NCBI RefSeq assembly: GCF_030013595.1
Contig: NZ_CP122768.1
Source of the DNA: Escherichia coli
GTDB lineage: Bacteria > Pseudomonadota > Gammaproteobacteria > Enterobacterales > Enterobacteriaceae
Direction: 5' to 3' (one strand)
DNA length: 64,000 nucleotides
In this document: positions 6,843 through 38,138 of the stretch, in pieces
How the letters are laid out: every line of letters starts with the position of its first letter
Numbering within the stretch: position 1 is the stretch's first letter
Notes under the pieces: model-generated
Seen by the model: only the letters and a program-made list of their open reading frames with translations
The model's database searches: none
What the model was told of the DNA's origin: nothing
Made by a program: the position numbers and the translations under genes

Positions 6843-7277
6843 CAGTGTTTCTCCTTTCGCCCGCCAGAGTAAAAAGCAACCGTTTACGTTAATGAAACTG
6901 TCTAAACACATGCTCGTGGAGTGCCAGTTTTTGCGAGGAAGGGGAGTTAGAGACAGGAATTGCGGAGGCAATCACATAATCGTGGTTAAACCACGAAAAT
7001 GAGAAGAGAACCTGACAATGGAATTATCTGTAATTTTCTCATATTGATATTTCATTAATCATTCTGGCATGTCGCACTCTCGCATTTAATCGTTTTTATC
7101 TGGATAGCGCTCTTTTGGTCGGCAATGTTGAAATAATGAAAGCGGCACAGATTGAGGGGCAATAATTTGAACTCAGTCGCAAAATTATAATTAAATCGGC
7201 CATGCTACCTAATATATGCCCATTTATTGCATCGCGAAATTTGAGAAGACATAACTCATTAAATGAAAGGGATGCAA

Positions 7278-9197
7278 ATGAATAAGTTTATCGCTGCTGA
7301 AGCTGCGGAATGTATAGGCTGTCATGCTTGTGAAATTGCCTGTGCGATGGCACATAATCAAGAAAACTGGCCGCTGAGTCACAGTGACTTTCGACCGCGT
7401 ATCCACGTTGTAGGGAAAGGCCAGGCTGCGAATCCGGTGGCCTGCCATCACTGCAACAATGCCCCTTGCGTTACGGCTTGTCCGGTTAATGCTCTGACTT
7501 TCCAGCCCGATAGCGTACAACTGGACGAGCAAAAATGTATTGGTTGTAAAAGATGCGCAATCGCTTGCCCCTTTGGCGTCGTTGAGATGGTCGATACGAT
7601 TGCGCAGAAATGCGACCTTTGTAACCAGCGCAGTTCCGGCACGCAAGCCTGTATTGAAGTCTGCTCAACACAGGCGTTACGGCTGATGGACGATAAAGGG
7701 TTGCAGCAGATAAAGGTGGCCCGCCAGCGCAAAACGGCAGCAGGAAAAGCGTCATCAGATGCTCAGCCATCTCGCAGGGCAGCGTTGCTCCCCGTTAACT
7801 CGCGTAAAGGCGCAGATAAAATTTCAGCGAGTGAACGGAAAACCCACTTTGGCGAAATTTATTGCGGGCTGGATCCACAACAAGCGACTTATGAGAGTGA
7901 CCGCTGTGTTTATTGCGCCGAAAAAGCTAACTGCAACTGGCATTGCCCGCTGCATAACGCTATTCCGGATTACATCCGTCTGGTACAGGAGGGAAAGATT
8001 ATTGAAGCGGCAGAACTTTGCCACCAGACCAGTTCCTTACCAGAAATCTGCGGAAGGGTATGCCCACAGGACCGTCTTTGTGAAGGCGCATGTACTTTGA
8101 AAGATCACTCTGGCGCAGTCTCTATCGGGAATCTGGAACGCTACATCACCGATACCGCGCTGGCGATGGGCTGGCGTCCCGATGTCAGCAAAGTTGTTCC
8201 CCGTAGCGAAAAAGTGGCGGTGATTGGCGCTGGGCCTGCAGGGTTAGGATGTGCTGATATTCTGGCGCGCGCAGGAGTTCAGGTTGATGTCTTTGATCGC
8301 CATCCAGAAATTGGCGGTATGCTGACTTTTGGCATTCCTCCTTTCAAACTCGATAAAACGGTATTAAGCCAGCGGCGAGAGATATTCACCGCAATGGGAA
8401 TCGACTTTCATCTTAACTGTGAAATTGGCCGCGATATTACCTTTAGCGATTTAACTTCTGAATATGATGCAGTTTTCATCGGCGTGGGGACTTACGGGAT
8501 GATGCGAGCAGATCTGCCGCATGAAGATGCGCCCGGTGTCATTCAGGCTCTACCGTTCCTGACTGCCCATACCCGCCAGCTCATGGGGTTGCCGGAGTCT
8601 GAAGAGTATCCGCTGACGGATGTGGAAGGTAAGCGAGTCGTGGTATTGGGCGGTGGCGATACGACCATGGATTGTTTGCGGACTTCCATCCGCCTCAATG
8701 CCGCCAGCGTGACCTGCGCGTATCGTCGTGATGAAGTCAGTATGCCGGGCTCGCGCAAAGAGGTGGTCAATGCGCGCGAGGAAGGTGTCGAGTTTCAGTT
8801 CAATGTTCAGCCGCAATATATCGCTTGTGACGAAGATGGGCGTTTAACTGCGGTGGGCCTGATTCGTACAGCCATGGGTGAGCCGGGGCCGGATGGTCGC
8901 CGTCGTCCTCGTCCGGTAGCGGGTTCAGAGTTTGAATTGCCCGCCGATGTTCTCATTATGGCCTTTGGTTTCCAGGCGCATGCCATGCCGTGGTTGCAGG
9001 GCAGCGGAATTAAACTCGATAAATGGGGCCTGATTCAAACCGGTGACGTCGGGTATTTACCTACCCAGACGCATCTGAAAAAAGTCTTTGCTGGTGGTGA
9101 TGCTGTTCATGGCGCGGATCTGGTTGTCACTGCAATGGCCGCAGGAAGGCAGGCGGCGCGCGATATGTTAACTCTGTTTGATACGAAGGCATCGTGA
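7278..9197 (+). CDS. ygfT: Putative oxidoreductase YgfT: N-terminal 4Fe-4S ferredoxin domain fused to a GltD-like NAD(P)H/FAD domain
   Basis: CxxCxxCxxxCP clusters at the N-terminus and the GAGPAGL dinucleotide motif; start chosen at MNKFIAAEA (alternative ATG at 7263). Confidence 0.88.
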
Positions 9198-9685
9198 TGA
9201 AATCGTTAATTATCGTTAATCCGGCTGACTGTATTGGCTGCCGTACTTGTGAAGTAGCCTGTGTGGTCGCTCACCCTTCAGAACAGGAGTTGAATGCCGA
9301 TGTCTTTTTACCCCGGCTGAAGGTACAGCGACTGGACAGCATCAGTGCGCCGGTGATGTGCCATCAGTGTGAAAACGCCCCTTGTGTTAGCGCTTGCCCC
9401 GTGGGGGCGCTGACGATGGGCGAGCAGGTGGTGCAGGCCAATTCTGCCCGTTGTATTGGCTGTCAGAGTTGCGTCAGTGCGTGCCCGTTTGGGATGATAA
9501 CCATTCAGTCGTTGCCGGGGGATACCCGGCAACAAATTGTGAAATGCGATCTCTGTGAACAGCGGGAAGAGGGGCCAGCCTGCGTTGAATCTTGCCCAAC
9601 ACAGGCGCTGCAGTTGCTTACTGAAAGAGAACTCAGGCGAGTCCGCCAGCAGCGTATTGTTGCCAGCGGTGAGAATCCTCTCTGA
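9194..9685 (+). CDS. ygfS: 4Fe-4S ferredoxin-type protein YgfS
   Basis: 163-aa ORF with four Cys clusters; ATGA start/stop overlap with ygfT implies translational coupling. Confidence 0.88.
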
Positions 9686-14022: not shown

Positions 14023-16893
14023 TTATATTTTTTCCAGCGCGGTGAGTATTTTCTCCGGTGTGAAATGCCATTCGCGTAACCAGATGCCGCATGCATCGTG
14101 AATTGCGGTAGCAATCGCCGGAGCTGCGCCATTTACACCGATTTCCGAGATTGATTTCGCCCCGAACGGGCCGACTTTATCGTCGCTCGGCACCAGCACA
14201 GCGCGGAAATCACGTGGAATGTCACCAATTTTCGGTGCGCCGTAACTGCGTAAATCACGCGTTAACGGGTGACCTTCGGCGTCATAAATGATTTCTTCGC
14301 TCATACTGTGGCCGATAGCACGTAGGGTAGCACCGTAGATTTGTCCCAACGCTAACTCTGGATTGACCGGTGTACCGCAGTCCAGCAAGGCGTAGAATTT
14401 ATCCAGGCGGATTTCACCCGTACGCGTGTTGACGGCAACTTCAGCGAAGTTTGCGCCATACGGGAAGGCGAAATCTGGCGTGATATAACTGCCAGTTCCC
14501 ACCAGTGAACCAAAGCCGGTGCCGGTTTCGCCTTTATGGGCAATATCCCCGAAGCTAACTTCGCCTTTCTTGCCGCGCACGACGCCCGGCGTTGCCAGTT
14601 GAACATCTGCCACTGGCTCACCCAACATTTGCGCACCGTGGAACAGAATTTTCTCCCGCAGATTTTCCGCTGCCATACGCGCCGCGTTACCAGAGAAGCA
14701 AGTACCGGACGAGGCATATGCGCCTTTATCAAACAACGCATGATCGGTATCACCGGAGATAACATGCACGTCCTGCGGTGGGCAGTGCAGCACTTCTGCT
14801 GCCAGTTTCGTCACCACAGTATCCAGACCAGTGCCAATATCCGCACCGCCAGAATGAACGATAAAGGTACCGTCTGATTCCAGTTTGATCATGCAGTTAG
14901 CCTGATCGATATCCGGGATCCCTGATTTCTGCATGATAATGGCGACGCCACGACCGATGTGCCAGTCACCGTTTTGTGGTTTTGGTGAAGACCATTGGAT
15001 CATCTCGCGACCCTGACGCAAGATCTCTTCCAGTGCGCAGCTGGCGGCGGAAGGAACGGAGGTCGGCGCTTTACCTTCACCGATTGCACCGAGAATTTTC
15101 AGCTCTTGCCCTTCGTGTACCCGGTTACGTTCGATAATTTCCAGTTGGTCGATCTGTAACTGTTCAGCCAGTTCCGCTAATGCCATGGTGATAGCGAAGT
15201 TACCTTTCGGTGCGCCATAACCCTGATAAGCACCATTTGGGCAAATGTTGCTGTAGTAGGTGGTGACCTGGAAATCGACGTTATCGCACGGATATAACGG
15301 CAGCGACAGCGCCGGTCCGTTACACGGTACGGTGAGTGAGTGGTTGCCGTAAGGGCCAGTGTTGGCGCGGAAATCCATCTTCACTGCCGTCAGGCGACCA
15401 TCTTTTTTCGCTCCCAGTTTGACGGTGACTTTCGCGACGTGACGAGAGGTGTTAGCAATAAACTCTTCTTCACGGGTGTAGCGGAACAGTACCGGACGCC
15501 CGGTCACGCAGGTTGCCCAAGCGCACACTTCTTCCAGCAGGATGTCCTGTTTAGACCCAAAACCGCCGCCAACTCGCTCTTTAATGACATGAACTTTATG
15601 TTGTTTCATGCCCACGAGGCGCGCGACCTGGCGGCGTAAGTGCCATGGTACCTGGGTGGAGGCGTGGATAACCAGACGATCGCCGTCCATACGGGTAAAG
15701 CAGATATGTGTTTCAGTCGGGCACTGCTGCGCCTGCGTTGAGTTATAGGTTCGCTCAATGATCACATCGGCATCGGCAAAGCCTTTGTCCATATCGCCAA
15801 TATGACCATGAATACTGGCGGCGATATTTTTACGGGGGCGAGAACCGATCGGGAAGTTGATGATCATATGCTCGCCGCGCTGGGCTGCATGGCTGTTATC
15901 GTCTTCCAGAGTATCTGGCGCACCAGCAACATACACCACCGGTTCATCGTGCACGACAGGTGCATCTTCCGCCATTGCTTCGTCAATCGACATTACCGGC
16001 TTAAGCACTTCATATTCAACGTCGATGAGCTTCAGTGCTTCGAGCGCAATTTCTTCACTTTCAGCGACGACCGCAGCAACGCGATCGCCGACGTGACGCA
16101 TTTTCTTGCCGAACATACGGCGGTCAAGCGGTGACGGTTCCGGTGCGCTCTGACCGCCCGGGGTATAGTAGATATCCGGGCAATTCAGGTGAGTAATAAC
16201 GTGAACAACGCCCGGTAAGGCTTCAGCTTTGCTGACATCCAGATGAGTAATCAGTGCGTGAGCGTGTGGGCTACGTAACATTTTAATGACGCAGGCGTCA
16301 GCCGTTACGCGGTCTTCAACATAGCAGGGTTTCGCCTGCACCATTTTCGCGGCATCAGTTTTAGGATAATGCTTACCAATGACTTCAAGGTCATCGCGGA
16401 AAGTTGGAGCGATATCAATGGTGGCCTGCGGATTATTTTTACGTGCAACCGCCAGTTCAATGACCTGATAGTATTGTTGCCAGCCTGCATCGCGGCTGAA
16501 CAAACCAGAAAGCGCGTCGTCGATCTCTTCGCGGGTCGGTGCGGCAATGCGATCGAGAAGATCGGTGATAATCAGAGCCGCAGCTGGATCGTTATAACCA
16601 GACTGCACCACGCCAACATCAACCATTGCCTGTTGAACCAGACTTAACTCGTTCCATTTGCCCAGAGACTCTGCGGTACGAATATCTGCCTTCTCTAACT
16701 GTGCGGCGATAAGCAAGGACGCGTTAACGATATTACCGTTAAAGATAATTGCGTCTGAACCGGCAAACCCGAATCCATCATCGCTGTTGCGTACAGAGTG
16801 CATTCCCATGTTAAACAACAGCTTTTGCACGTTTTCGCCTGGATTAACGGTTAGCTCCTGAGGCGCGCCATTTAAAGTAAAGTGGATGATCAT
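14023..16893 (-). CDS. xdhD: Molybdopterin-dependent hydroxylase, fused 2Fe-2S and Moco domains (xanthine-dehydrogenase family)
   Basis: 956-aa ORF, MIIHFTLNGAPQELTVNPGENVQKLL...; family assigned from domain organisation. Confidence 0.92.
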   Translation of the reverse strand: MIIHFTLNGAPQELTVNPGENVQKLLFNMGMHSVRNSDDGFGFAGSDAIIFNGNIVNASLLIAAQLEKADIRTAESLGKWNELSLVQQAMVDVGVVQSGYNDPAAALIITDLLDRIAAPTREEIDDALSGLFSRDAGWQQYYQVIELAVARKNNPQATIDIAPTFRDDLEVIGKHYPKTDAAKMVQAKPCYVEDRVTADACVIKMLRSPHAHALITHLDVSKAEALPGVVHVITHLNCPDIYYTPGGQSAPEPSPLDRRMFGKKMRHVGDRVAAVVAESEEIALEALKLIDVEYEVLKPVMSIDEAMAEDAPVVHDEPVVYVAGAPDTLEDDNSHAAQRGEHMIINFPIGSRPRKNIAASIHGHIGDMDKGFADADVIIERTYNSTQAQQCPTETHICFTRMDGDRLVIHASTQVPWHLRRQVARLVGMKQHKVHVIKERVGGGFGSKQDILLEEVCAWATCVTGRPVLFRYTREEEFIANTSRHVAKVTVKLGAKKDGRLTAVKMDFRANTGPYGNHSLTVPCNGPALSLPLYPCDNVDFQVTTYYSNICPNGAYQGYGAPKGNFAITMALAELAEQLQIDQLEIIERNRVHEGQELKILGAIGEGKAPTSVPSAASCALEEILRQGREMIQWSSPKPQNGDWHIGRGVAIIMQKSGIPDIDQANCMIKLESDGTFIVHSGGADIGTGLDTVVTKLAAEVLHCPPQDVHVISGDTDHALFDKGAYASSGTCFSGNAARMAAENLREKILFHGAQMLGEPVADVQLATPGVVRGKKGEVSFGDIAHKGETGTGFGSLVGTGSYITPDFAFPYGANFAEVAVNTRTGEIRLDKFYALLDCGTPVNPELALGQIYGATLRAIGHSMSEEIIYDAEGHPLTRDLRSYGAPKIGDIPRDFRAVLVPSDDKVGPFGAKSISEIGVNGAAPAIATAIHDACGIWLREWHFTPEKILTALEKI

Positions 16894-17669
16894 ACGGCTT
16901 CCTCCCCAGCCTGTTGGCAGTCGGCATACAGGTCGGCTACCAGAACTCCCGTGATATAGCGTTTATAGGCCACGCTGCCCCGCAAATCTTCCTGCGGGAA
17001 AATGGCGTTGGCGACAGCCTGTTCAAGTGCATTGCCTTCCAGATTTTGTTTTTCAACATCGTGCAGACGCAGGGCTTTACTGGCGACGCCATCCAGCGCA
17101 ATTCGCATACCGTCGTGGTCTGTCATTGCAACGGCTGCCGTCACGACGGTTAAACCTGCCTGAGAACGGCTAATTTTGCGGGTCGCACAGGTGCGATACG
17201 GATCTTTAATGATAATTTCGGTTAGCAGGCGATCGCATGGGCAGGCCAGGTACTCTTCGATTGACAGCGTTTCGCCGTTGCCAAAAACCAGTTCAGCATC
17301 CAGTGCCAGCAGGACGGGAAGCAGCACAGACTCTTCCTGCCGGGCGGCGATTTCACCACCAATGGTCGACTGATTACGAACATGGCGTGAGTAAACAAAA
17401 CCGAGGGCTTCACGCAGTGCTGCAGGAATAAATCGCGCATCACGCAGTGGCTGCAAGCGAGACATTGCGCCAATCCGCAGTGCACCGTTATCCCAGTCAA
17501 CCCAGTCCAGCTCCAGATCCTGTAAGGAAATGGCAATCTTTTTATCGGTACGGGTTGGTGTAGCGTTGAGTTTGCTGCCCCCGGCGAACCAGACGGCTTC
17601 ATCCTGGTAACGGCGCTTCAGTTCCAGCGCCTGTTCGACAGAGTCGGGCCTGAAAAATTGTTCAATCAT
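16890..17669 (-). CDS. ygfM: FAD-binding subunit of a molybdo-hydroxylase (CO dehydrogenase flavoprotein-like)
   Basis: 259-aa ORF; stop overlaps the xdhD start (ATGA). Confidence 0.88.
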   Translation of the reverse strand: MIEQFFRPDSVEQALELKRRYQDEAVWFAGGSKLNATPTRTDKKIAISLQDLELDWVDWDNGALRIGAMSRLQPLRDARFIPAALREALGFVYSRHVRNQSTIGGEIAARQEESVLLPVLLALDAELVFGNGETLSIEEYLACPCDRLLTEIIIKDPYRTCATRKISRSQAGLTVVTAAVAMTDHDGMRIALDGVASKALRLHDVEKQNLEGNALEQAVANAIFPQEDLRGSVAYKRYITGVLVADLYADCQQAGEEAV

Positions 17670-17719
17670 CTTCTTTCCTTATTTAACCCTCTTCCCAGCG
17701 GGAAGAGGGTATTTGTCAT

Positions 17720-19048
17720 TTATGCCAACGCATCCATCCGACGCCACATACTGGCAGCGGCTTTTCTGGCTTGCGCATAAATGGAATCGCAATCGAAGTT
17801 AAACTGACGGTCTTCATAGACCATCACGCCATTGACCATCACGCTATGAACGCTGCCTGAGCCCATACCGAAAGCGATATGCCCGGCGATATTGTCTGCC
17901 AGCAGCGGTGTCGGCGAGTTGTAATCGCAAATGGTTAAATCGGCTTTGTAACCGGCTTCCAGAAGGCCAAATTTCGCGCCAAAGTTGCGGCTCATCAGTT
18001 CGTTGCCGTTAGCCAGTGCTTTGGCAAAACTGTTAGGCCACAGCGGACCACCCGCATCGCGATGTTTAAAGAAGGCAAATTTCATCTCTTCAAACATGTC
18101 CGAACCAATGCCGTCAGTTCCCAACGCCAGATTGCGGATGTCGCTAAGGTGATGGTTGTAGCCGACATGGTTGTTCATGTTTGAACGGGCGTTATGCACC
18201 AGGAACGCATCGCGCTGATTGAGTAGGGCGATGTCATCTTTCGACAAGTACAGCCCATGAGCGACCAGCGTTTTGCTGTCGATGAGATCGAATTGCGCCA
18301 GTCGTGCCAGCAGGTCTTTGCCGTACCAGTGGTGACTGTAGGAAACGTCATAAAGGTCTTCCGCAGCGTGAATGTGCAAACCACGACCTGTGGCTTTCAC
18401 GGCTTCACGCAGCATCTCCAGACCGGCATCCGGCACGGTAAACGGCGCGTGAGCGCCGATATGAGCTTCCACCAGATACGGCTCGGTTGCTGCTTTCTTC
18501 GCCTCATCAATCTGACGGGCGAAGCGGATGTTTTCTTCTACACCTTCCTGCAACTCTTTGATGCTGTTGTTACGGTCAGTAGTTTCAAAACAGGTCATCG
18601 CGCGCAGGCCAACTTTTAAAAATGCGTTGCGCAATGTGGAGAGCGACCCGCCGATATACGCCGGAGAGGCATGGTGATCGATAACCGATGTACATCCGCT
18701 CTTAATCGCTTCCAGGGAACAAATCAGTCCGCTGTAATAGAGCGACTCTTCATCAAGGGCGCGATCGAGTCGCCACCAGAGATTTTTCAGCGTTGAGATG
18801 AAATCCGGGCAGGGGGCGATGTTTGCCATAATTCCGCGGGACAGCCCCGAGTAAAAATGGTTGTGCGAGCAGACAATTCCCGGCATCACAATCCGACCAT
18901 GCATCTCTTTGTAGCTGGCATCGGGGTAGCGTTGCGTCAGGGCATCGCCGATAGCAACAATCACATCATTTTCGATGGCGATATCAACGCCTTCCTGCAC
19001 TTTCGCCGGGTGTAACTGCACTGCGGTGACATTCTTCAGAATCAACAT
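17720..19048 (-). CDS. ssnA: Putative aminohydrolase SsnA (chlorohydrolase / amidohydrolase family)
   Basis: 442-aa ORF with the HNHF metal-binding motif near the N-terminus. Confidence 0.9.
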   Translation of the reverse strand: MLILKNVTAVQLHPAKVQEGVDIAIENDVIVAIGDALTQRYPDASYKEMHGRIVMPGIVCSHNHFYSGLSRGIMANIAPCPDFISTLKNLWWRLDRALDEESLYYSGLICSLEAIKSGCTSVIDHHASPAYIGGSLSTLRNAFLKVGLRAMTCFETTDRNNSIKELQEGVEENIRFARQIDEAKKAATEPYLVEAHIGAHAPFTVPDAGLEMLREAVKATGRGLHIHAAEDLYDVSYSHHWYGKDLLARLAQFDLIDSKTLVAHGLYLSKDDIALLNQRDAFLVHNARSNMNNHVGYNHHLSDIRNLALGTDGIGSDMFEEMKFAFFKHRDAGGPLWPNSFAKALANGNELMSRNFGAKFGLLEAGYKADLTICDYNSPTPLLADNIAGHIAFGMGSGSVHSVMVNGVMVYEDRQFNFDCDSIYAQARKAAASMWRRMDALA

Positions 19049-19050
19049 GA

Positions 19051-22000
19051 TTACACCTCCACGCGGCCCAGCAGATAATGATGATGCTGGTGGACATGGC
19101 TAATAATGCGGCACATATCGTTCAGCTCCGGTGGTACGTTGTTGAACTGACCTTCGCTGTCGATGCTTAACACCCAGCTTTGGTTATTCAGACGTACTCG
19201 TACCCGGCAATCTTCCACAAGGAAGCCAGGATTGCTGCTGTTATCAAAGTCTTGCGACAGGCTGAAGACGGTGATTTTGTCTTTGTACGGTTTACCGTTC
19301 CACGGGCAGAACTGAGCGCAGTTGCCGCATTCGTTACAGTAAGCGTCGAGGTGCAGCGTCTGGAAACGGTTCTGGAAGCCAGGGACCGCAATGGATACGT
19401 TGGCACGGTTCGGGCAGACATCCACACACTTGCTGCAAACGTAGTTACATTCAAGGCAGCGTGCGGCTTCCTGGGCGACAAACGCGTCACGATCGTCGCT
19501 ATCCACCAGGGTGATAGAGATATCGCCTTTGCGTTGATAGATTTCCGCCGGATTGACGTTGTTCCAGTATTTATCGTTCTGGTGGGAACGGATATTTTCC
19601 CGACTAAGGATGGCATCGGTCGCCCGACGCGCGGTTCCGACAGCAGCGACAATGGAGGATGGTCCGCGCTGTACGTCGCCGATCATAAAGACGTCAGTCA
19701 GACGAGTTTCGCCATTATGGTCGACGTCTGGCCAGCCGTTTTTGTCCAGCGGCACGCCCATCGCATTCAGGGCTTCAGTATCCTGCTGTTCACCAATGGC
19801 GGTGATCAGGCTGTCTACATGCAGTGTTACTGTTTCGTTGGTTTCAACCGGACGGCGACGACCTTTCTCATCAGGTTCGCCAAGCGACATAACGCGCAAG
19901 GTTAAGGTGCCATCAGCATCGAAACGTTCCGGATTATTCAGGAAACGGAACTCCACGCCGTCGTGCAACGCTTCTTCATACTCTTCGCGCCATGCTGGCA
20001 TCTCTTGCAGTGAACGACGGTAAACGACCGTTGCTTTTTCTACGCCTGGAACGCGTAACGCCGCACGAGCGCAGTCCATTGCCGTGTTACCCGCCCCGAC
20101 AACGACCACATGTTTGCCCAGCTTGAGCGCTGTGCCCTTGTTGTATTCACGCAGGAAGGGGAGTGATTTCCAGACATTTTGGTTGTCGCCCGCCAGTTTC
20201 ACACCGCTATTTTTATCAGTGCCGGTGGCAATCAGAACATAGTGGAAGCCCTGATTTTTTAACTGTTCAACGGTCAAATCGGGTGAGCAGCCATACTCAA
20301 ATTTCACGCCGTGAGCGGCAACAAAATCAATATCGTGCTGAATTAACTCTGCAGGAATACGGAACTGAGGAATGATATTTTTCACCACGCCGCCCGCATT
20401 GGCTTCGCGTTCAAACAGCGTAACCGGATGGCCCGCTCTGGCAAGGAAGTAACCTGCTGCCAGACCCGCCGGACCTGCACCAATCACGGCAACCGGATGG
20501 CGTGAACCAGAACCGGCGGGTTTGTGCCACCGTTGCTTATATTCATCCCAACCTTTTTCCAGCGCGACTTTTTTCAGTTCGCGGATATTCAGCGCACTGT
20601 CGTAATCCAGGCGGGTACAGTTGTATTGGCACTGGTGATCGCAAATATGACCGGTAATGGCGGGCAGGGCGTTGCGTTGGTAGATGAGTTCCAGCGCGTC
20701 AGCATAGCGGTGTTCGCCAAGCAAACGGATGTATTCCGGAATATCTTGCTTGATAGCGCAGGCAGTAACACAGGGGGCAACGTAGCAGTCGGTCAGCGGC
20801 AGGTCTTCTGCCACTTCAATACGCTCTTCTGGCTTCCAGTGTTTCTGGGTGTATTCCATGGTTAACGCGTCTGCTGCCAGTTTGTTCAGTCGTTCGACGT
20901 CAACATGGTCAAGCCCCCAGGCGTCGGAGCCTTCCAGCTCGCGCATGCAGGCACTTAAGCGCAGATAGCCGCCAGGTTTCAGCAGGTCGGTTGCCATAGT
21001 AATAGGGCGAATACCAGTATCAAAAATATCGCGGATAGTCAGCTGACTGGCACCACCGGAATAAGAAATGGGCAGTTTGCCGTCAAAGGCGCGAGAGAGA
21101 ACTGCTGCAACATTGATGGAGAGCGGGAACAGCGCACGGCCTGACATATACATCTCTTCACCAGGCAGTGCGCCTTTATTGTTGATGGTGCCGAGAGTGT
21201 TAGTCAATTTTACGCCAAAGCCGAGTGATTTTTCTTTTGCCAGTACCATCAGGCGTTCCAGCATTTCCAGCGCTTGCGTCAGCTTGAGGTCGTGATCAAA
21301 TGACTCTTCTTTTAAGCCTATGTAACCGAAACCGCAGACATCGAGGATCTCACGAACACGCGCGTACCCCAGTAAGGTCGGGTTGAGTTTCACAAAGGTA
21401 TTGAGCCCTTTTTCTTCCAGCATGTAGCGGCAAATGGCTTCGATTTCATGCGGAGGACAGCCGTGCATGGTGGAGAGGGTGACGCCCTGCACCATACTGG
21501 TGGGGATGCGAGCGGGTAAAGCTTGCAAGCTTTCGCGTTTTTCCTGCAATCCGTGGCGGGCTAAAAATGCGTCATCCTGGAGTAATTTATTCAGCGTATC
21601 GCGATATTGAGCGAATTTCGGATGGTCAGATGCATCCATCATATTGTCGATGAACTGTTGCATCGGAGGTTGCTTAATACCTTCGAGGTTATAACCGACG
21701 CTCATATTAAAGATGAACGATTTACCGGAATCAGAAGGTTGGAACATCGCTTCGAGAAGATGCAGGGCAAACCAGGCTTTGAGGTATTCATCCCAGGCTT
21801 TAAGCAGGGTAAATTCGGTAGACCATTCGGTGTTAAAGCACTCGTCTTCGGCATCGATACAGGGCTTTTCCAGTTCCAGGCGGTCAAGAATTTGGACGGT
21901 TTTTAGTTCGATGAAGCGCCCGCCAGTCAGCCAGGAAGTGACAATATTTTGCGCGAGCTGCGTGTGCGGGCCAGCGGCAGGGCCGACGGGAGTGGCACAG

Positions 22001-22149
22001 GTTTCACCGAAGACGCTAACAGTTTTACCTTTTACGGGTGAGTAAAACTGTTGCTCGGGAATACCAAAGATTGAGCGTTGTTGTTGGTATTCATCAAATA
22101 TGCGCGTCAAAAGTTCCTCAAACGGAATGGGACGCATAATATCCCCCAT
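19051..22149 (-). CDS. ygfK: Putative Fe-S / FAD-NAD(P) oxidoreductase YgfK (GltD-like)
   Basis: 1032-aa ORF, MGDIMRPIPFEELLTRIFDEYQQQRSIFG...; GAGPAGLAAG nucleotide motif and C-terminal Cys clusters. Confidence 0.92.
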   Translation of the reverse strand: MGDIMRPIPFEELLTRIFDEYQQQRSIFGIPEQQFYSPVKGKTVSVFGETCATPVGPAAGPHTQLAQNIVTSWLTGGRFIELKTVQILDRLELEKPCIDAEDECFNTEWSTEFTLLKAWDEYLKAWFALHLLEAMFQPSDSGKSFIFNMSVGYNLEGIKQPPMQQFIDNMMDASDHPKFAQYRDTLNKLLQDDAFLARHGLQEKRESLQALPARIPTSMVQGVTLSTMHGCPPHEIEAICRYMLEEKGLNTFVKLNPTLLGYARVREILDVCGFGYIGLKEESFDHDLKLTQALEMLERLMVLAKEKSLGFGVKLTNTLGTINNKGALPGEEMYMSGRALFPLSINVAAVLSRAFDGKLPISYSGGASQLTIRDIFDTGIRPITMATDLLKPGGYLRLSACMRELEGSDAWGLDHVDVERLNKLAADALTMEYTQKHWKPEERIEVAEDLPLTDCYVAPCVTACAIKQDIPEYIRLLGEHRYADALELIYQRNALPAITGHICDHQCQYNCTRLDYDSALNIRELKKVALEKGWDEYKQRWHKPAGSGSRHPVAVIGAGPAGLAAGYFLARAGHPVTLFEREANAGGVVKNIIPQFRIPAELIQHDIDFVAAHGVKFEYGCSPDLTVEQLKNQGFHYVLIATGTDKNSGVKLAGDNQNVWKSLPFLREYNKGTALKLGKHVVVVGAGNTAMDCARAALRVPGVEKATVVYRRSLQEMPAWREEYEEALHDGVEFRFLNNPERFDADGTLTLRVMSLGEPDEKGRRRPVETNETVTLHVDSLITAIGEQQDTEALNAMGVPLDKNGWPDVDHNGETRLTDVFMIGDVQRGPSSIVAAVGTARRATDAILSRENIRSHQNDKYWNNVNPAEIYQRKGDISITLVDSDDRDAFVAQEAARCLECNYVCSKCVDVCPNRANVSIAVPGFQNRFQTLHLDAYCNECGNCAQFCPWNGKPYKDKITVFSLSQDFDNSSNPGFLVEDCRVRVRLNNQSWVLSIDSEGQFNNVPPELNDMCRIISHVHQHHHYLLGRVEV

Positions 22150-22221
22150 AACCCTCTCCTTAGCTTATACAGATATCATTGAGTGACCGGTGTTGAGAAA
22201 TCCGGTGGTTTAGGGGGATAG

Positions 22222-22246
22222 AGCAACAATCGCACCACTCTTGCCA
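22222..22246 (-). promoter_or_regulatory. Candidate sigma-54 promoter (-24/-12) for ygfK
   Basis: Minus strand reads CTGGCAAGAGTGGTGCGATTGTTGCTC: two overlapping GG-N10-GC matches (TGGCAA-N5-GTGCG and TGGTGC-N5-TTGCT) about 75 bp upstream of the ygfK ATG. Confidence 0.3.
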
Positions 22247-22470
22247 GGTTTGGCGGGAAATATAAAAAAATGTGAGGCGGCTCGAAACTTAGGAGCTTTT
22301 TGTGAATGAACTCACAGGTGCCAAATGAGAATTAAAATCACTCCTGAAAATTATTATTGCCAGCCCATTTATCACTTTTTCTCTTTTCTCAAAATCAGTG
22401 ATTCCTTATCATTATGATAAAGAGTGCTGGAGGGATTAAATATTTGAACGCAATCGTTTAACTACATTTT

Positions 22471-23151: not shown

Positions 23152-23922
23152 GTGAAAAGTATAGTTGACCCATCGGCATTATTCATTGATTTAGGCGCGC
23201 AGAAACGTCCCATTGTGATTTCTGTTGTTGGGGCTGGGGGGAAAACCAGCTTGCTTTTTTGGCTGGCAGAACTGCTCCAGGCTAGCGGCAGGCGTGTGTT
23301 AATCACGACGACGACACATATGTTTATGCCAACGTCTCACTGGCCCGTGGTTTTCTGTCGTGATCCCGCCATGCTTCCTCATGCGTCTTTTATATCCCCC
23401 ATTTCATTTTGTTTTCACAGCTGGAAAGCGAACCAGGGAAAAGTGCAGGGATTTACGCCAGAAGCGATTGATGCACTGGTACAACGATCAGAGTGTGACG
23501 TAATTCTCATTGAGGCAGATGGCTCGCGTGGAATGCCGTTAAAAGCGCCTGATGATCACGAACCTTGCATACCTAAAAGCAGTTGCTGCGTGATTGCTGT
23601 GATGGGAGGACATATTTTGGGTGCAAAAGTGAGCACAGAAAATGTCCATCGCTGGTCGCAGTTTGCTGATATTACCGGGTTAACACCTGATGCACCCTTG
23701 CAACTGAGCGATCTCGTTGCGCTGGTTCGCCACCCTCAGGGCGCGTTTAAAAACGTACCGCAAGGTTGTCGGCGAGTCTGGTTCATTAACCGTTTTTCTC
23801 AATGTGAGAATGCGATTGCGCAAAGCGAGCTCCTTCAACCGCTGCAACAACACAACGTAGAGGCAATCTGGCTGGGCGATATACAAGAACATCCTGCAAT
23901 CGCGCGCAGATTTGTGAATTAG
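23152..23922 (+). CDS. yqeC: Putative selenium-dependent hydroxylase accessory protein YqeC
   Basis: 256-aa ORF, MKSIVDPSALFIDLGAQKRPIVISVVGAGGKTSLLFWLA (P-loop-like). Confidence 0.88.
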   Translation: MKSIVDPSALFIDLGAQKRPIVISVVGAGGKTSLLFWLAELLQASGRRVLITTTTHMFMPTSHWPVVFCRDPAMLPHASFISPISFCFHSWKANQGKVQGFTPEAIDALVQRSECDVILIEADGSRGMPLKAPDDHEPCIPKSSCCVIAVMGGHILGAKVSTENVHRWSQFADITGLTPDAPLQLSDLVALVRHPQGAFKNVPQGCRRVWFINRFSQCENAIAQSELLQPLQQHNVEAIWLGDIQEHPAIARRFVN

Positions 23923-31767: not shown

Positions 31768-32242
31768 AAAGTCCCGGTAGTGGAATGACAGGCAAAGAGG
31801 TTTATTTCACTGTGACTTGCCAAAGTGATTGGTGTTTTCACAGCTATACCTGGGACTAACAATAAGTGTGCCAGAATTATCCGCGCGGCTGCAAAAGACT
31901 AATTTGACGGATAATGTGTGGGGTTGATCACAAATTGATGCCAGCTTCTGGTTGTTTGTAAAATACGAAAACGTTTGGCTTTTTTTATCGCGTTATTTAT
32001 TTGCTGCTAAGTATCAGAAATAAGATAAAGGAACAGGCGCTCTCTCTTCAGTTTGATAAACTCACCGCCGTAATTCTCATATTGATATAGAAATGTGATA
32101 TCTCTTCCATAATTTCATTAGAAAGTGATAAAAATCTTATGTTTTTATCAAAGCCAATTTCGCCTGAGTTAATATCATCATGATCTGTGAACCATCAACG
32201 TCTTCAATGATCGACTTTTAAGTAAGTCTGGAAGGTAAAGCT

Positions 32243-34021
32243 ATGGAGCTTGCTACTACGCAGTCAGTATTGATGCAAATTCAACCGACAATTCAGCGTT
32301 TTGCCAGAATGCTTGCCAGCGTTTTGCAGCTTGAGGTTGAGATCGTTGATGAAAACTTGTGTCGCGTCGCCGGAACGGGCGCGTATGGGAAGTTTCTTGG
32401 TCGCCAGTTGAGCGGCAACTCACGCCTGCTCCGCCACGTCCTGGAAACGAAAACTGAAAAAGTTGTGACACAGTCTCGCTTCGATCCCCTTTGCGAAGGT
32501 TGCGATAGTAAAGAAAATTGCCGCGAAAAAGCATTTCTGGGTACGCCTGTCATTTTACAGGATCGTTGTGTTGGGGTGATAAGTTTGATTGCCGTTACCC
32601 ACGAGCAACAAGAGCATATTAGTGATAATTTACGCGAATTTTCTGATTACGTTCGCCATATATCCACCATTTTTGTTTCGAAACTTCTGGAGGATCAGGG
32701 ACCAGGAGATAACATCAGTAAAATATTCGCGACCATGATCGATAATATGGATCAGGGTGTATTAGTTGTTGATGACGATAATCGGATTCAGTTTGTTAAT
32801 CAGACTGCCTTAAAAACACTTGGTGTTGTACAAAATAATATTATTGGGAAACCTATCCGTTTCAGACCATTAACATTTGAGAGTAATTTTACCCATGGAC
32901 ATATGCAGCATATTGTTTCGTGGGACGATAAAAGTGAATTAATCATTGGTCAATTGCATAACATTCAGGGCCGACAATTATTTTTAATGGCGTTTCACCA
33001 ATCGCATACCAGTTTTTCTGTAGCAAATGCACCTGATGAACCGCATATTGAACAATTGGTTGGCGAGTGCCGTGTTATGCGGCAATTAAAACGACTCATT
33101 AGCCGTATTGCACCCAGCCCATCCAGCGTTATGGTGGTTGGTGAAAGCGGCACGGGTAAAGAAGTTGTCGCCCGTGCAATCCATAAGTTGAGCGGAAGAC
33201 GGAATAAACCCTTTATTGCTATCAACTGTGCCGCGATTCCGGAGCAGCTTCTGGAGAGCGAACTGTTCGGTTATGTTAAAGGCGCATTTACTGGCGCTTC
33301 TGCCAACGGTAAAACAGGGTTGATTCAGGCGGCGAATACGGGCACGCTGTTTCTCGATGAAATAGGTGATATGCCATTAATGTTGCAGGCTAAATTACTG
33401 CGCGCTATTGAGGCGCGTGAAATTCTGCCGATTGGTGCCAGTAGCCCAATACAAGTCGACATTCGCATCATTTCTGCAACTAACCAGAATTTGGCCCAGT
33501 TCATTGCCGAAGGTAAATTCCGCGAAGATCTCTTCTACCGACTTAATGTTATCCCGATAACTCTGCCACCGCTGCGTGAACGTCAGGAAGATATTGAACT
33601 ACTGGTGCATTACTTTTTACATCTGCATACCCGTCGTCTGGGATCGGTTTATCCGGGCATTGCTCCCGATGTCGTCGAAATATTGCGTAAGCATCGTTGG
33701 CCCGGAAACCTGCGCGAGTTAAGCAATTTGATGGAATATCTGGTTAACGTGGTTCCTTCAGGTGAAGTTATCGACAGCACGCTATTGCCGCCAAATCTGC
33801 TGAATAATGGCACAACGGAGCAAAGTGATGTAACAGAGGTCAACGAGGCGCACCTGGCACTCGATGATGCGGGCGGCACGGCGCTGGAGGAGATGGAAAA
33901 GCAAATGATCCGCGAGGCGCTTTCACGTCATAACAGCAAGAAGCAAGTTGCTGATGAACTGGGCATCGGCATTGCTACGCTCTATCGCAAGATTAAGAAA
34001 TATGAGTTGTTAAACACATAA
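32243..34021 (+). CDS. ygeV: Sigma-54-dependent transcriptional activator (bacterial enhancer-binding protein)
   Basis: 592-aa ORF with Walker A VVGESGTGKE, the GAFTGA motif and a C-terminal HTH (ADELGIGIATLYRKIKK). Confidence 0.92.
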   Translation: MELATTQSVLMQIQPTIQRFARMLASVLQLEVEIVDENLCRVAGTGAYGKFLGRQLSGNSRLLRHVLETKTEKVVTQSRFDPLCEGCDSKENCREKAFLGTPVILQDRCVGVISLIAVTHEQQEHISDNLREFSDYVRHISTIFVSKLLEDQGPGDNISKIFATMIDNMDQGVLVVDDDNRIQFVNQTALKTLGVVQNNIIGKPIRFRPLTFESNFTHGHMQHIVSWDDKSELIIGQLHNIQGRQLFLMAFHQSHTSFSVANAPDEPHIEQLVGECRVMRQLKRLISRIAPSPSSVMVVGESGTGKEVVARAIHKLSGRRNKPFIAINCAAIPEQLLESELFGYVKGAFTGASANGKTGLIQAANTGTLFLDEIGDMPLMLQAKLLRAIEAREILPIGASSPIQVDIRIISATNQNLAQFIAEGKFREDLFYRLNVIPITLPPLRERQEDIELLVHYFLHLHTRRLGSVYPGIAPDVVEILRKHRWPGNLRELSNLMEYLVNVVPSGEVIDSTLLPPNLLNNGTTEQSDVTEVNEAHLALDDAGGTALEEMEKQMIREALSRHNSKKQVADELGIGIATLYRKIKKYELLNT

Positions 34022-37684: not shown

Positions 37685-38138
37685 GCATGATTCACCTGTA
37701 GCGGTTGCTTCCCGCGCTTCCATAGAAATCCCCTCGATTTGAACATTTGGTTCTTATGGCAAAGATTTAGTCTAAGCAGGCAAGATTTACGCCAGAAACG
37801 ACGATAAGCGTTAAGGGAGGAAGGAAGTGTGATGATGTTAAAAAAACACAGATATGATACGAAACAGGACCCTGAATAGGGGCAGTGATACGTATCAATA
37901 TGAGTGGCGATAAAATCAATGTGATAAATTGGGATTATTACGCATCAGGATGGGAAATAGGGTAAATGAGTCAGGAAATTCGATACATCTACAGTGAATA
38001 TTTTGCTGATGATACTTCCCTTTGCCAAATGAAATTAACCTCTTTCTCTATTACCGCGTTTTTCCAGAAGCAAGAGATTGGGTATCAAGAGGCTGGCTGC
38101 TATGATATGGCGTCTTGTTTTTTAAGCGAGGAAAGATT

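Follow-up and report, generated by a model that had tools for sequence, protein, structure and literature searches.

In a 64,000-nucleotide stretch of an Escherichia coli chromosome (NZ_CP122768.1; hereafter, the window), the 321-bp spacer between mocA and ygfK holds a predicted sigma-54 (-24/-12) promoter, GTGGTGCGATTGTTGCT, that would serve the ygfK-ssnA-ygfM-xdhD operon. We consider it likely that this promoter is opened by YgeV, an enhancer-binding protein encoded in the same cluster, acting from a palindromic enhancer across a DNA loop shaped by the cyclic AMP receptor protein (CRP). The ygfK promoter is already known, since it is the catalogued site OS31 of a chromatin immunoprecipitation-sequencing (ChIP-seq) survey and its link to YgeV is a published hypothesis; the enhancer and CRP architecture is possibly the only part that is new.

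The window covers a purine and uric-acid gene cluster, inverted relative to K-12. The products of ygfK-ssnA-ygfM-xdhD perform key steps of the anaerobic uric-acid (2,8-dioxopurine) degradation pathway, which gut bacteria use against urate and whose regulation a 2025 preprint calls poorly understood. The four genes are separated by 2, 50 and -4 nt. Their upstream spacer is 100% identical in strain 50579417 and was found in 5171 of 5426 complete genomes. The elements around the ygfK start are as follows.

22149-19051, minus strand: ygfK, with its ATG at 22149.
14023-22149, minus strand: ygfK-ssnA-ygfM-xdhD, the genes served by the promoter (open reading frames and RefSeq annotation).
22222-22238, minus strand: predicted sigma-54 (-24/-12) promoter of ygfK, GTGGTGCGATTGTTGCT, with GG at 22236-22235 and GC at 22224-22223.
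22231-22247, minus strand: overlapping upstream match CTGGCAAGAGTGGTGCG, 9 bp out of register with the downstream 17-mer.
22211, minus strand: predicted transcription start of ygfK, 12 nt 3' of the -12 C, giving a 62-nt leader and corresponding to about 3015998 in K-12 NC_000913.3.

The earlier note on this DNA, made from the letters alone, had pointed to two overlapping GG-N10-GC matches on the minus strand about 75 bp upstream of ygfK. Both are there: TGGTGCGATTGTTGC at 22237-22223, within the 17-mer 22238-22222, and TGGCAAGAGTGGTGC at 22246-22232, within the 17-mer 22247-22231 (GG 22245-22244, GC 22233-22232), beginning 73-98 nt 5' of the ATG. The bare pattern is nearly worthless as evidence, with two occurrences in the spacer against ~0.4 expected and, for TGG-N9-TGC in the window, 57 against 42. 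We therefore built a weight matrix from 38 intergenic ChIP-verified sigma-54 sites (Bonocora et al., PMC4591121), holding out the four sites of this cluster. In the resulting scan—the check that the note had proposed—the downstream 17-mer scored 12.04 and took ranks 3-4 (tied) among ~128,000 window positions, and the upstream one scored 11.33 (rank 10). Shuffled spacers reached a score of at least 12.04 at P = 0.007-0.009, and two sites of at least 11.3 at P = 0.00005-0.00015. GTGGTGCGATTGTTGCT also has the GG/GC spacing of the sigma-54 promoter class within a 17-mer resembling YTGGCACGrNNNTTGCW.

In K-12, ChIP-seq had placed OS31, with the motif GTGGTGCGATTGTTGCT, upstream of ygfK at a fold-above-threshold of 26, which ranks it ninth in strength among 42 intergenic sense sites; the start predicted from it falls 62 nt 5' of ygfK, and EcoCyc has the site as a predicted promoter (Bonocora et al. 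2015, PMC4591121). This geometry maps exactly onto 22238-22222 (motif centre 22230; start 22211 by the same authors' rule of 19 bp downstream of the centre; 62 nt to the ATG). K-12 and the window are identical across both registers, and the peak thus documents in-vivo occupancy by sigma-54 holoenzyme on the very sequence found here. A sigma-54 promoter before ygfK, as the earlier note had suggested, is thereby borne out. An earlier microarray study, as cited in PMC4591121, placed ygfK among sigma-54-dependent genes.

The two registers were told apart by conservation. We collected 80 loci with YgfK relatives, one genome per species, and scanned the 400 nt before ygfK in each. In 74 of them the best match was a homologue of the downstream site, lying 75-170 nt 5' of the ygfK start codon; these 74 span Enterobacterales, Aeromonas, Vibrionaceae, Shewanella and two betaproteobacteria and share the form xTGGnnnGAT(T/A)GTTGCT. 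The site reads CTGGTG(C/T)GA(T/A)TGTTGCT in Citrobacter, Klebsiella, Trabulsiella and Kluyvera, CTGGC(G/C)TGATTGTTGCT in Edwardsiella, Serratia and Aeromonas, and TTGGCGCAGTAGTTGCT in Photobacterium, Vibrio and Shewanella. The same scan returned no homologue in four Spirochaete loci and Ideonella, and the remaining locus, with 53 nt of upstream DNA only, is not judgeable. The upstream register occurs in Escherichia only and varies even there (CTGGCAATAG..., CTGGTAAGAG...), with scores down to 8.7 and 7.4; in the 80-locus comparison it is absent from Citrobacter onwards. As the downstream site is conserved and the upstream one Escherichia-only and degenerate, the predicted ygfK promoter is the downstream 17-mer at 22238-22222.

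We accordingly rejected the upstream register as a real promoter on conservation, and of the pair in the earlier note only the downstream member holds up. That CTGGCAAGAGTGGTGCG nevertheless functions in E. coli, alone or by sharing the role, is very improbable: it is unconserved outside the genus and variable inside, its -12 element lacks TT, the ChIP peak is centred downstream of the two motifs and so further from this one, and the phased enhancer and CRP sites described below would face the wrong side of the helix for a promoter shifted by 9 bp. Its -24 half, CTGGCAAG, is admittedly nearer consensus than GTGGTGCG, its score is nearly as good, the shift is below ChIP-seq resolution, and a ChIP signal of 26 is high for a modest motif score. 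The overlap most likely reflects an Escherichia-specific coincidence, although the extra out-of-phase register could also serve as a decoy tuning occupancy.

Anchoring all promoters on the 17-mer exposed conserved blocks further upstream, foremost a TATCA-N3-TGATA palindrome.

22407-22419: candidate enhancer site 1, the perfect palindrome TATCATAATGATA, centre -202, proposed as the YgeV binding site.
22387-22399: candidate enhancer site 2, ACTGATTTTGAGA, centre -182, 20 bp from site 1.
22323-22340, minus strand: conserved block TGATTTTAATTCTCATTT, -129 to -112.

The half-sites of site 1 are invariant in an eight-sequence alignment; in site 2 the right half is conserved (TTTTGAGAA or TTTGATA). 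Vibrionaceae carry a second site, TATTAAATTGATA, 19 bp after the first, and second, weaker palindromes follow at +21 and +20 at xdhA and ygfT, giving an overall spacing of 19-21 bp downstream of the first. Within the window, eight palindromes with at most one mismatch were found where 1.8 are expected, five of them in the four spacers with sigma-54 ChIP sites: at -202 for ygfK, -234 and -332 for ygeW, -152 for xdhA (plus a two-mismatch copy at -131) and -199 for ygfT. The cis-element is hence shared by ygfK, ygeW (two copies), xdhA and ygfT. Across 1.5 Mb of loci, 144 of 262 palindromes had a sigma-54 matrix match 80-360 bp downstream, against ~10% expected.

Of the orthologous ygfK promoters, 69 contain the palindrome with no more than one mismatch, and its distance to the 17-mer is quantized: 154-156 nt (21 loci), 167 (2), 174-177 (28), 187-189 (13) and 198-200 (2), with one locus at 133. 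The steps are ~10.7 bp, and the resultant length is 0.79 at a period of 10.5-11 bp. Orthologous ygeW promoters have it 207-211, 197 or 187 nt before the 17-mer. The ygfK spacer thus shows tandem, conserved and phased sites at -202 and -182, as in an upstream activator sequence at looping distance, and this pattern is the signature of a putative enhancer for a dimer-binding activator that would face the polymerase. Block TGATTTTAATTCTCATTT hardly varies across the aligned Enterobacterales and can still be made out in Aeromonas and Morganella, as TGATA-N5-TCTCA; a scan of the window found no second copy of it or of AAACGATTGCGTTCA elsewhere in the cluster. It could represent a third activator site in everted arrangement.

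The candidate activator is encoded by ygeV, which the earlier note had read as an enhancer-binding protein gene, in agreement with its Pfam domains.

32243-34021, plus strand: ygeV, enhancer-binding protein with PAS, sigma-54 interaction (AAA+) and HTH_8 domains (Pfam).

In every locus where it is in range, ygeV adjoins ygeW divergently, and in most of the 80 loci it falls just outside the 10-kb flank. The helix-turn-helix sequence ELGIG(I/V/L)ATLYRKIKKY, with a single variable position, is common to E. coli and ten orthologues, and its recognition helix, ATLYRKIKKY, is unchanged down to 52% overall identity, which is consistent with an invariant target. Covariation of this helix with the TCTCA/TGAGA variant palindrome of Erwinia and Pantoea was also considered and gave no specificity signal, as the helix is unchanged and E. 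coli itself has TCTCA half-sites at ygeW and ygfT. In expression data, a YgeV iModulon for which YgeV is proposed as the activator includes ygfK, ssnA, ygfM and xdhD (Lamoureux et al. 2023, PMC10602906). According to that paper, ygfT expression is reduced in a ygeV mutant, and by a study known through citation ygeV is needed for formate-dependent uric acid use. Predicted YgeV control of the ygfK operon is well supported by the palindrome common to ygfK, ygeW, xdhA and ygfT, by its phasing in 69 promoters and by iModulon membership. The earlier note's proposal of joint YgeV/sigma-54 control is thus confirmed in its sigma-54 half and, through palindrome and iModulon, made probable in its YgeV half.

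We regard it as unlikely that the sigma-54 site is real while its activator is another protein, with the palindrome binding some NtrC-like, purine- or iron-responsive regulator. Several observations do point that way: our literature search found no YgeV ChIP, SELEX (systematic evolution of ligands by exponential enrichment) or footprint, and hence no direct YgeV-DNA data; Aeromonas and Vibrionaceae keep the palindrome with no activator gene within 10 kb; and a promoter inside yqeC of this cluster (ChIP site IS34), proposed to drive yqeB mRNA, is induced by nitrogen limitation (Bonocora et al., PMC4591121). Against this, the cluster encodes YgeV as an activator of its own, on which uric acid use and ygfT expression depend, and the sigma-54 sites are the specific partners of the palindrome, at looping distance and with the helical phase kept. 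The E. coli copy of the palindrome has 10 nt (ATAATGATAA) in common with the Fur-box consensus; a Fur box was nonetheless rejected, as the centre triplet varies freely (TAA, AAG, TTG, ATA) and the Fur-like stretch is destroyed in most genera. As for NtrC, reading the ygfK spacer by eye, with no formal scan, showed no full NtrC-type palindrome (TGCACC-N5-GGTGCA).

Between the candidate enhancer and the promoter lie two CRP-type sites.

22301-22316: perfect CRP consensus TGTGAGTTCATTCACA, centre -98.5, with a 62-nt gap to the 17-mer.
22271-22286: CRP-type site TTCGAGCCGCCTCACA, centre -68.5, 32 nt from the 17-mer.

TGTGAGTTCATTCACA is the only perfect CRP consensus in the window and is conserved in Enterobacterales; every genus with the promoter keeps TTCGAGCCGCCTCACA in the form TTnGA-N6-TCACR, always at the same alignment column. 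CRP-type sites accompany all five sigma-54 sites of the cluster, centred at -68.5 (ygfK and xdhA), -69.5 (ygfT), -78.5 (ygeW) and -79.5 (the yqeC-internal site). Among 117 palindrome-associated sigma-54 promoters, the gap from the best CRP-type 16-mer to the 17-mer was 32-33 nt in 35, 42-44 in 18, 53 in two and 62-64 in 32. By comparison with the class of promoters assisted by integration host factor (IHF), a search of 22239-22420 on either strand for the IHF consensus WATCARNNNNTTR with at most one mismatch returned no site. In wild-type E. coli, uric acid degradation is subject to glucose repression, and the 2025 preprint mentions a native Crp site in the ygeV-ygeW spacer. From the phased CRP sites, the lack of an IHF consensus and the glucose repression of the pathway, we infer a positive role in which CRP would bend the loop productively at ygfK. 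Neither the enhancer motif nor its phasing nor the phased CRP sites turned up in our literature search.

A CRP site of this quality might instead signal that ygfK is transcribed mainly by sigma-70 polymerase, from a CRP-dependent promoter or by read-through from mocA, with the sigma-54 holoenzyme poised, unproductive or modulatory. The perfect consensus stands 98.5 nt upstream, mocA lies on the same strand 321 nt upstream with no terminator-like hairpin found in between, and sigma-54 binding sites need not be promoters, as Bonocora et al. stress (PMC4591121). We think this quite improbable. A scan of the ygfK strand returned no sigma-70-like -35/-10 pair 3' of the CRP site; relative to TATATT (-53 to -48), the hexamer closest to a -10 element, CRP would be centred near -57.5, a position of neither class I nor class II, and the spacer does not have the arrangement of a CRP-dependent sigma-70 promoter (near -41.5, -61.5, -72.5 etc.). 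A sigma-54 element and phased enhancer conserved over several orders would moreover be hard to explain if non-productive.

Under the preferred reading, sigma-54 opening by YgeV, RNA polymerase-sigma-54 would wait as a closed complex on 22238-22222, where ChIP in K-12 shows occupancy. YgeV, encoded 10 kb off, would assemble on the tandem palindromes at -202 and -182 upon a purine-derived signal and contact the polymerase by DNA looping. Cyclic AMP-CRP at -98.5 and -68.5 may set the loop geometry and impose catabolite control, in the place where many sigma-54 promoters have IHF. ATP hydrolysis would then open the promoter, with transcription starting near 22211 and running through ygfK-ssnA-ygfM-xdhD.

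Several points weigh against this scenario. The ygfK site scores near the bottom of the validated set, with only 2 of the 38 sites lower, and its E. coli -24 element, TGGTGC, departs from consensus. A genomic SELEX (gSELEX) survey of RNA polymerase-sigma-54 in vitro has the ygeV/ygeW spacer and not ygfK. Sigma-54 overexpression left ygfK uninduced in RNA-seq (Bonocora et al., PMC4591121), as would be expected if the activator is inactive. The literature yielded no measured ygfK start, rpoN dependence or YgeV binding; the palindrome is tied to YgeV by co-location and co-regulation alone, and in Aeromonas and Vibrionaceae no activator gene stands closer than 10 kb to ygfK. Distances of 160 and 179 put three loci off phase, and shared ancestry inflates the phasing counts, which comprise only about five independent distance classes. 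The CRP effects that our literature search found for sigma-54 promoters (dctA, glnAp2, Pu, nif) are all inhibitory.

The remaining sigma-54 promoters of the cluster, their upstream elements and the genes concerned are listed below.

31767-30577, minus strand: ygeW.
31858-31874, minus strand: predicted ygeW promoter CTGGCACACTTATTGTT, ChIP site OS30 and gSELEX peak, matrix score 15.85.
32075-32087 (-234) and 32173-32185 (-332): ygeW palindromes, with a CRP-type site at 31917-31932 (-78.5).
37723-35426, minus strand: xdhA.
37779-37795, minus strand: predicted xdhA promoter CTGGCGTAAATCTTGCC, ChIP site OS29, 'confirmed' in EcoCyc, matrix score 12.04.
37914-37926 (-152) and 37893-37905 (-131): xdhA palindromes, with a CRP-type site at 37828-37843 (-68.5).
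7291-9210, plus strand: ygfT.
7215-7231, plus strand: ygfT sigma-54 site TATGCCCATTTATTGCA, ChIP site OS32, one base off K-12.
7037-7049 (-199): ygfT palindrome, with a CRP-type site at 7166-7181 (-69.5).
23553-23569, plus strand: sigma-54 site inside yqeC, TGATCACGAACCTTGCA, ChIP site IS34, serving yqeB.
23494-23509, plus strand: CRP-type site TGTGACGTAATTCTCA inside yqeC, 43 nt 5' of the sigma-54 site, a gap phased as at ygeW.
23049-22471, minus strand: mocA, ending 321 nt 5' of ygfK on the same strand.

The ygeW site ranks first in the matrix scan of the window, with a ChIP fold-above-threshold of 3, lower than that of ygfK. Its -12 element is non-canonical, without a C (TTGTT, or TTGAT in Erwinia and some Serratia), and stands next to a perfect TGGCAC. 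Because this combination is kept in 31 of 34 orthologues, the -12 element is a selected variant like those of pspA and pspG, not a decayed site. The earlier note, which had placed this site at 31859-31875, one nucleotide off, saw the irregular -12 correctly; its description as a weaker site does not agree with the top matrix score and the conservation, though it does with the lower ChIP signal. At the yqeC-internal site, no TATCA-N3-TGATA palindrome was found within 420 bp. In Clostridioides difficile, a sigma-54 promoter is reported before yqeB, not yqeC.

As the palindrome, a phased CRP-type site and a -24/-12 element recur at xdhA, ygeW and ygfT, the cluster may behave as one YgeV/sigma-54/CRP regulon. 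The design also occurs at another operon: in Klebsiella, Cedecea and Kluyvera a gene for a UacT-like permease, ~50% identical to UacT over aligned segments, lies 3' of the ygfK operon, and its upstream DNA carries TCTCAATGTGATA and TTGGCACAGCTTACGCA along with a CRP site that is perfect or nearly so (~17140-17335 in locus L012, ~17205-17400 in L022, ~17130-17260 in L016). In the Cedecea urate-permease promoter a perfect CRP site, TGTGATTTATTTCACA, stands at a gap of 32. By its elements, this permease operon shares the same three-part promoter design. More tentatively, and with the odds in our view somewhat against so complete a picture, we propose a single YgeV regulon of composite design, in which a tandem TATCA-N3-TGATA enhancer combines with one or two helically locked CRP sites (-68.5, -78.5/-79.5, -98.5) and no IHF, CRP acting as a positive architectural co-activator.

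Other features of the region were recorded alongside. An Rfam search of 5000-40000 returned no family except a tRNA, with no match in the 62-nt ygfK leader, and the leader folds no better than shuffles (z = 0.86); a riboswitch or leader RNA was rejected on these two results. Within the leader (22157-22211, minus strand), a CCGG...CCGG element (ACCGGatttctcaacaCCGGT) is conserved in Enterobacterales and forms only a 5-bp hairpin, without statistical support. Just past the mocA stop and ~45 nt 5' of the enhancer palindrome, a box, TTAAACGATTGCGTTCAA (22445-22462, minus strand), is kept in Escherichia, Citrobacter, Edwardsiella, Serratia and Buttiauxella, including genomes in which mocA is not adjacent, and is similar to a PurR operator (core GCAAnCGTTT). 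The window has no second copy. A search for boxes of this type gave a three-mismatch match, GCAACCGTTTACGTTAA, at 6874-6892 (plus strand) in the ygfT-uacT spacer just 5' of uacT, which also resembles a PurR operator.

Inside ssnA, CTGGCACGACTGGCGCA (18294-18310, minus strand, sense) has the second-best matrix score in the window, 12.68, and a perfect -24 half; it is absent from the high-stringency table of Bonocora et al. About 255 of the 5426 E. coli genomes are without the whole region. In the swine isolate E. coli QL57EC (NZ_CP172108.1), only the last 60 nt of the query match, corresponding to the ygfK start, which implies that the promoter spacer was replaced or deleted there.

The promoter itself is not new, and what could matter is the cis-regulatory map: it provides a candidate YgeV operator, a regulon-wide promoter design from E. 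coli to Vibrio and, in CRP, a link to glucose repression, and would be relevant to the engineering of uricolytic probiotics.

Set against known systems, the ygfK promoter and OS31 are the same object: 17-mer, orientation and position agree, with the motif centred 81 nt 5' of the ATG. No activator, enhancer or measured start was assigned to it by Bonocora et al. 2015 (PMC4591121). The YgeV iModulon (PMC10602906) comprises the co-varying xdhABC, ygeWXY, hyuA, ygfK-ssnA-ygfM-xdhD, ygfT and uacT; it derives from expression statistics, has no binding motif and cites sigma-54 promoters just for xdhABC and ygeWXY, whereas the palindrome and CRP-type sites described here would give it a cis-element basis that includes ygfK. 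At the level of sequence, ygeW resembles pspA and pspG (-12 TTGTA), functional sigma-54 promoters that likewise combine a consensus -24 TGGCA with T for C at -12 (PMC4591121); ygfK is their opposite, with a consensus -12 and a weak -24.

In Clostridiales, a sigma-54 activator, DioR, is predicted to control the same set of genes—ygeW-ygfK-ssnA-ygeY, dpaL, yqeB, xdhC and pbuX—with a sigma-54 promoter before yqeB, not yqeC (Nie et al. 2019, PMC6615313); the DioR regulon belongs to a different phylum, and the two systems are likened here by gene set. Classical enhancer-dependent promoters, such as glnAp2/NtrC and the IHF-assisted Pu/XylR, share with ygfK the -24/-12 element, tandem dimer sites 100-250 bp upstream, dependence on the helix face and an architectural site in between; the ygfK spacer differs in having CRP-type sites there and no IHF consensus. 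CRP is reported as inhibitory at glnAp2, dctA and Pu, whereas at ygfK the pathway's repression by glucose suggests a positive role. CRP as a co-activator of a sigma-54 promoter would, if true, be the opposite of that inhibition and would explain why glucose represses uric acid degradation.

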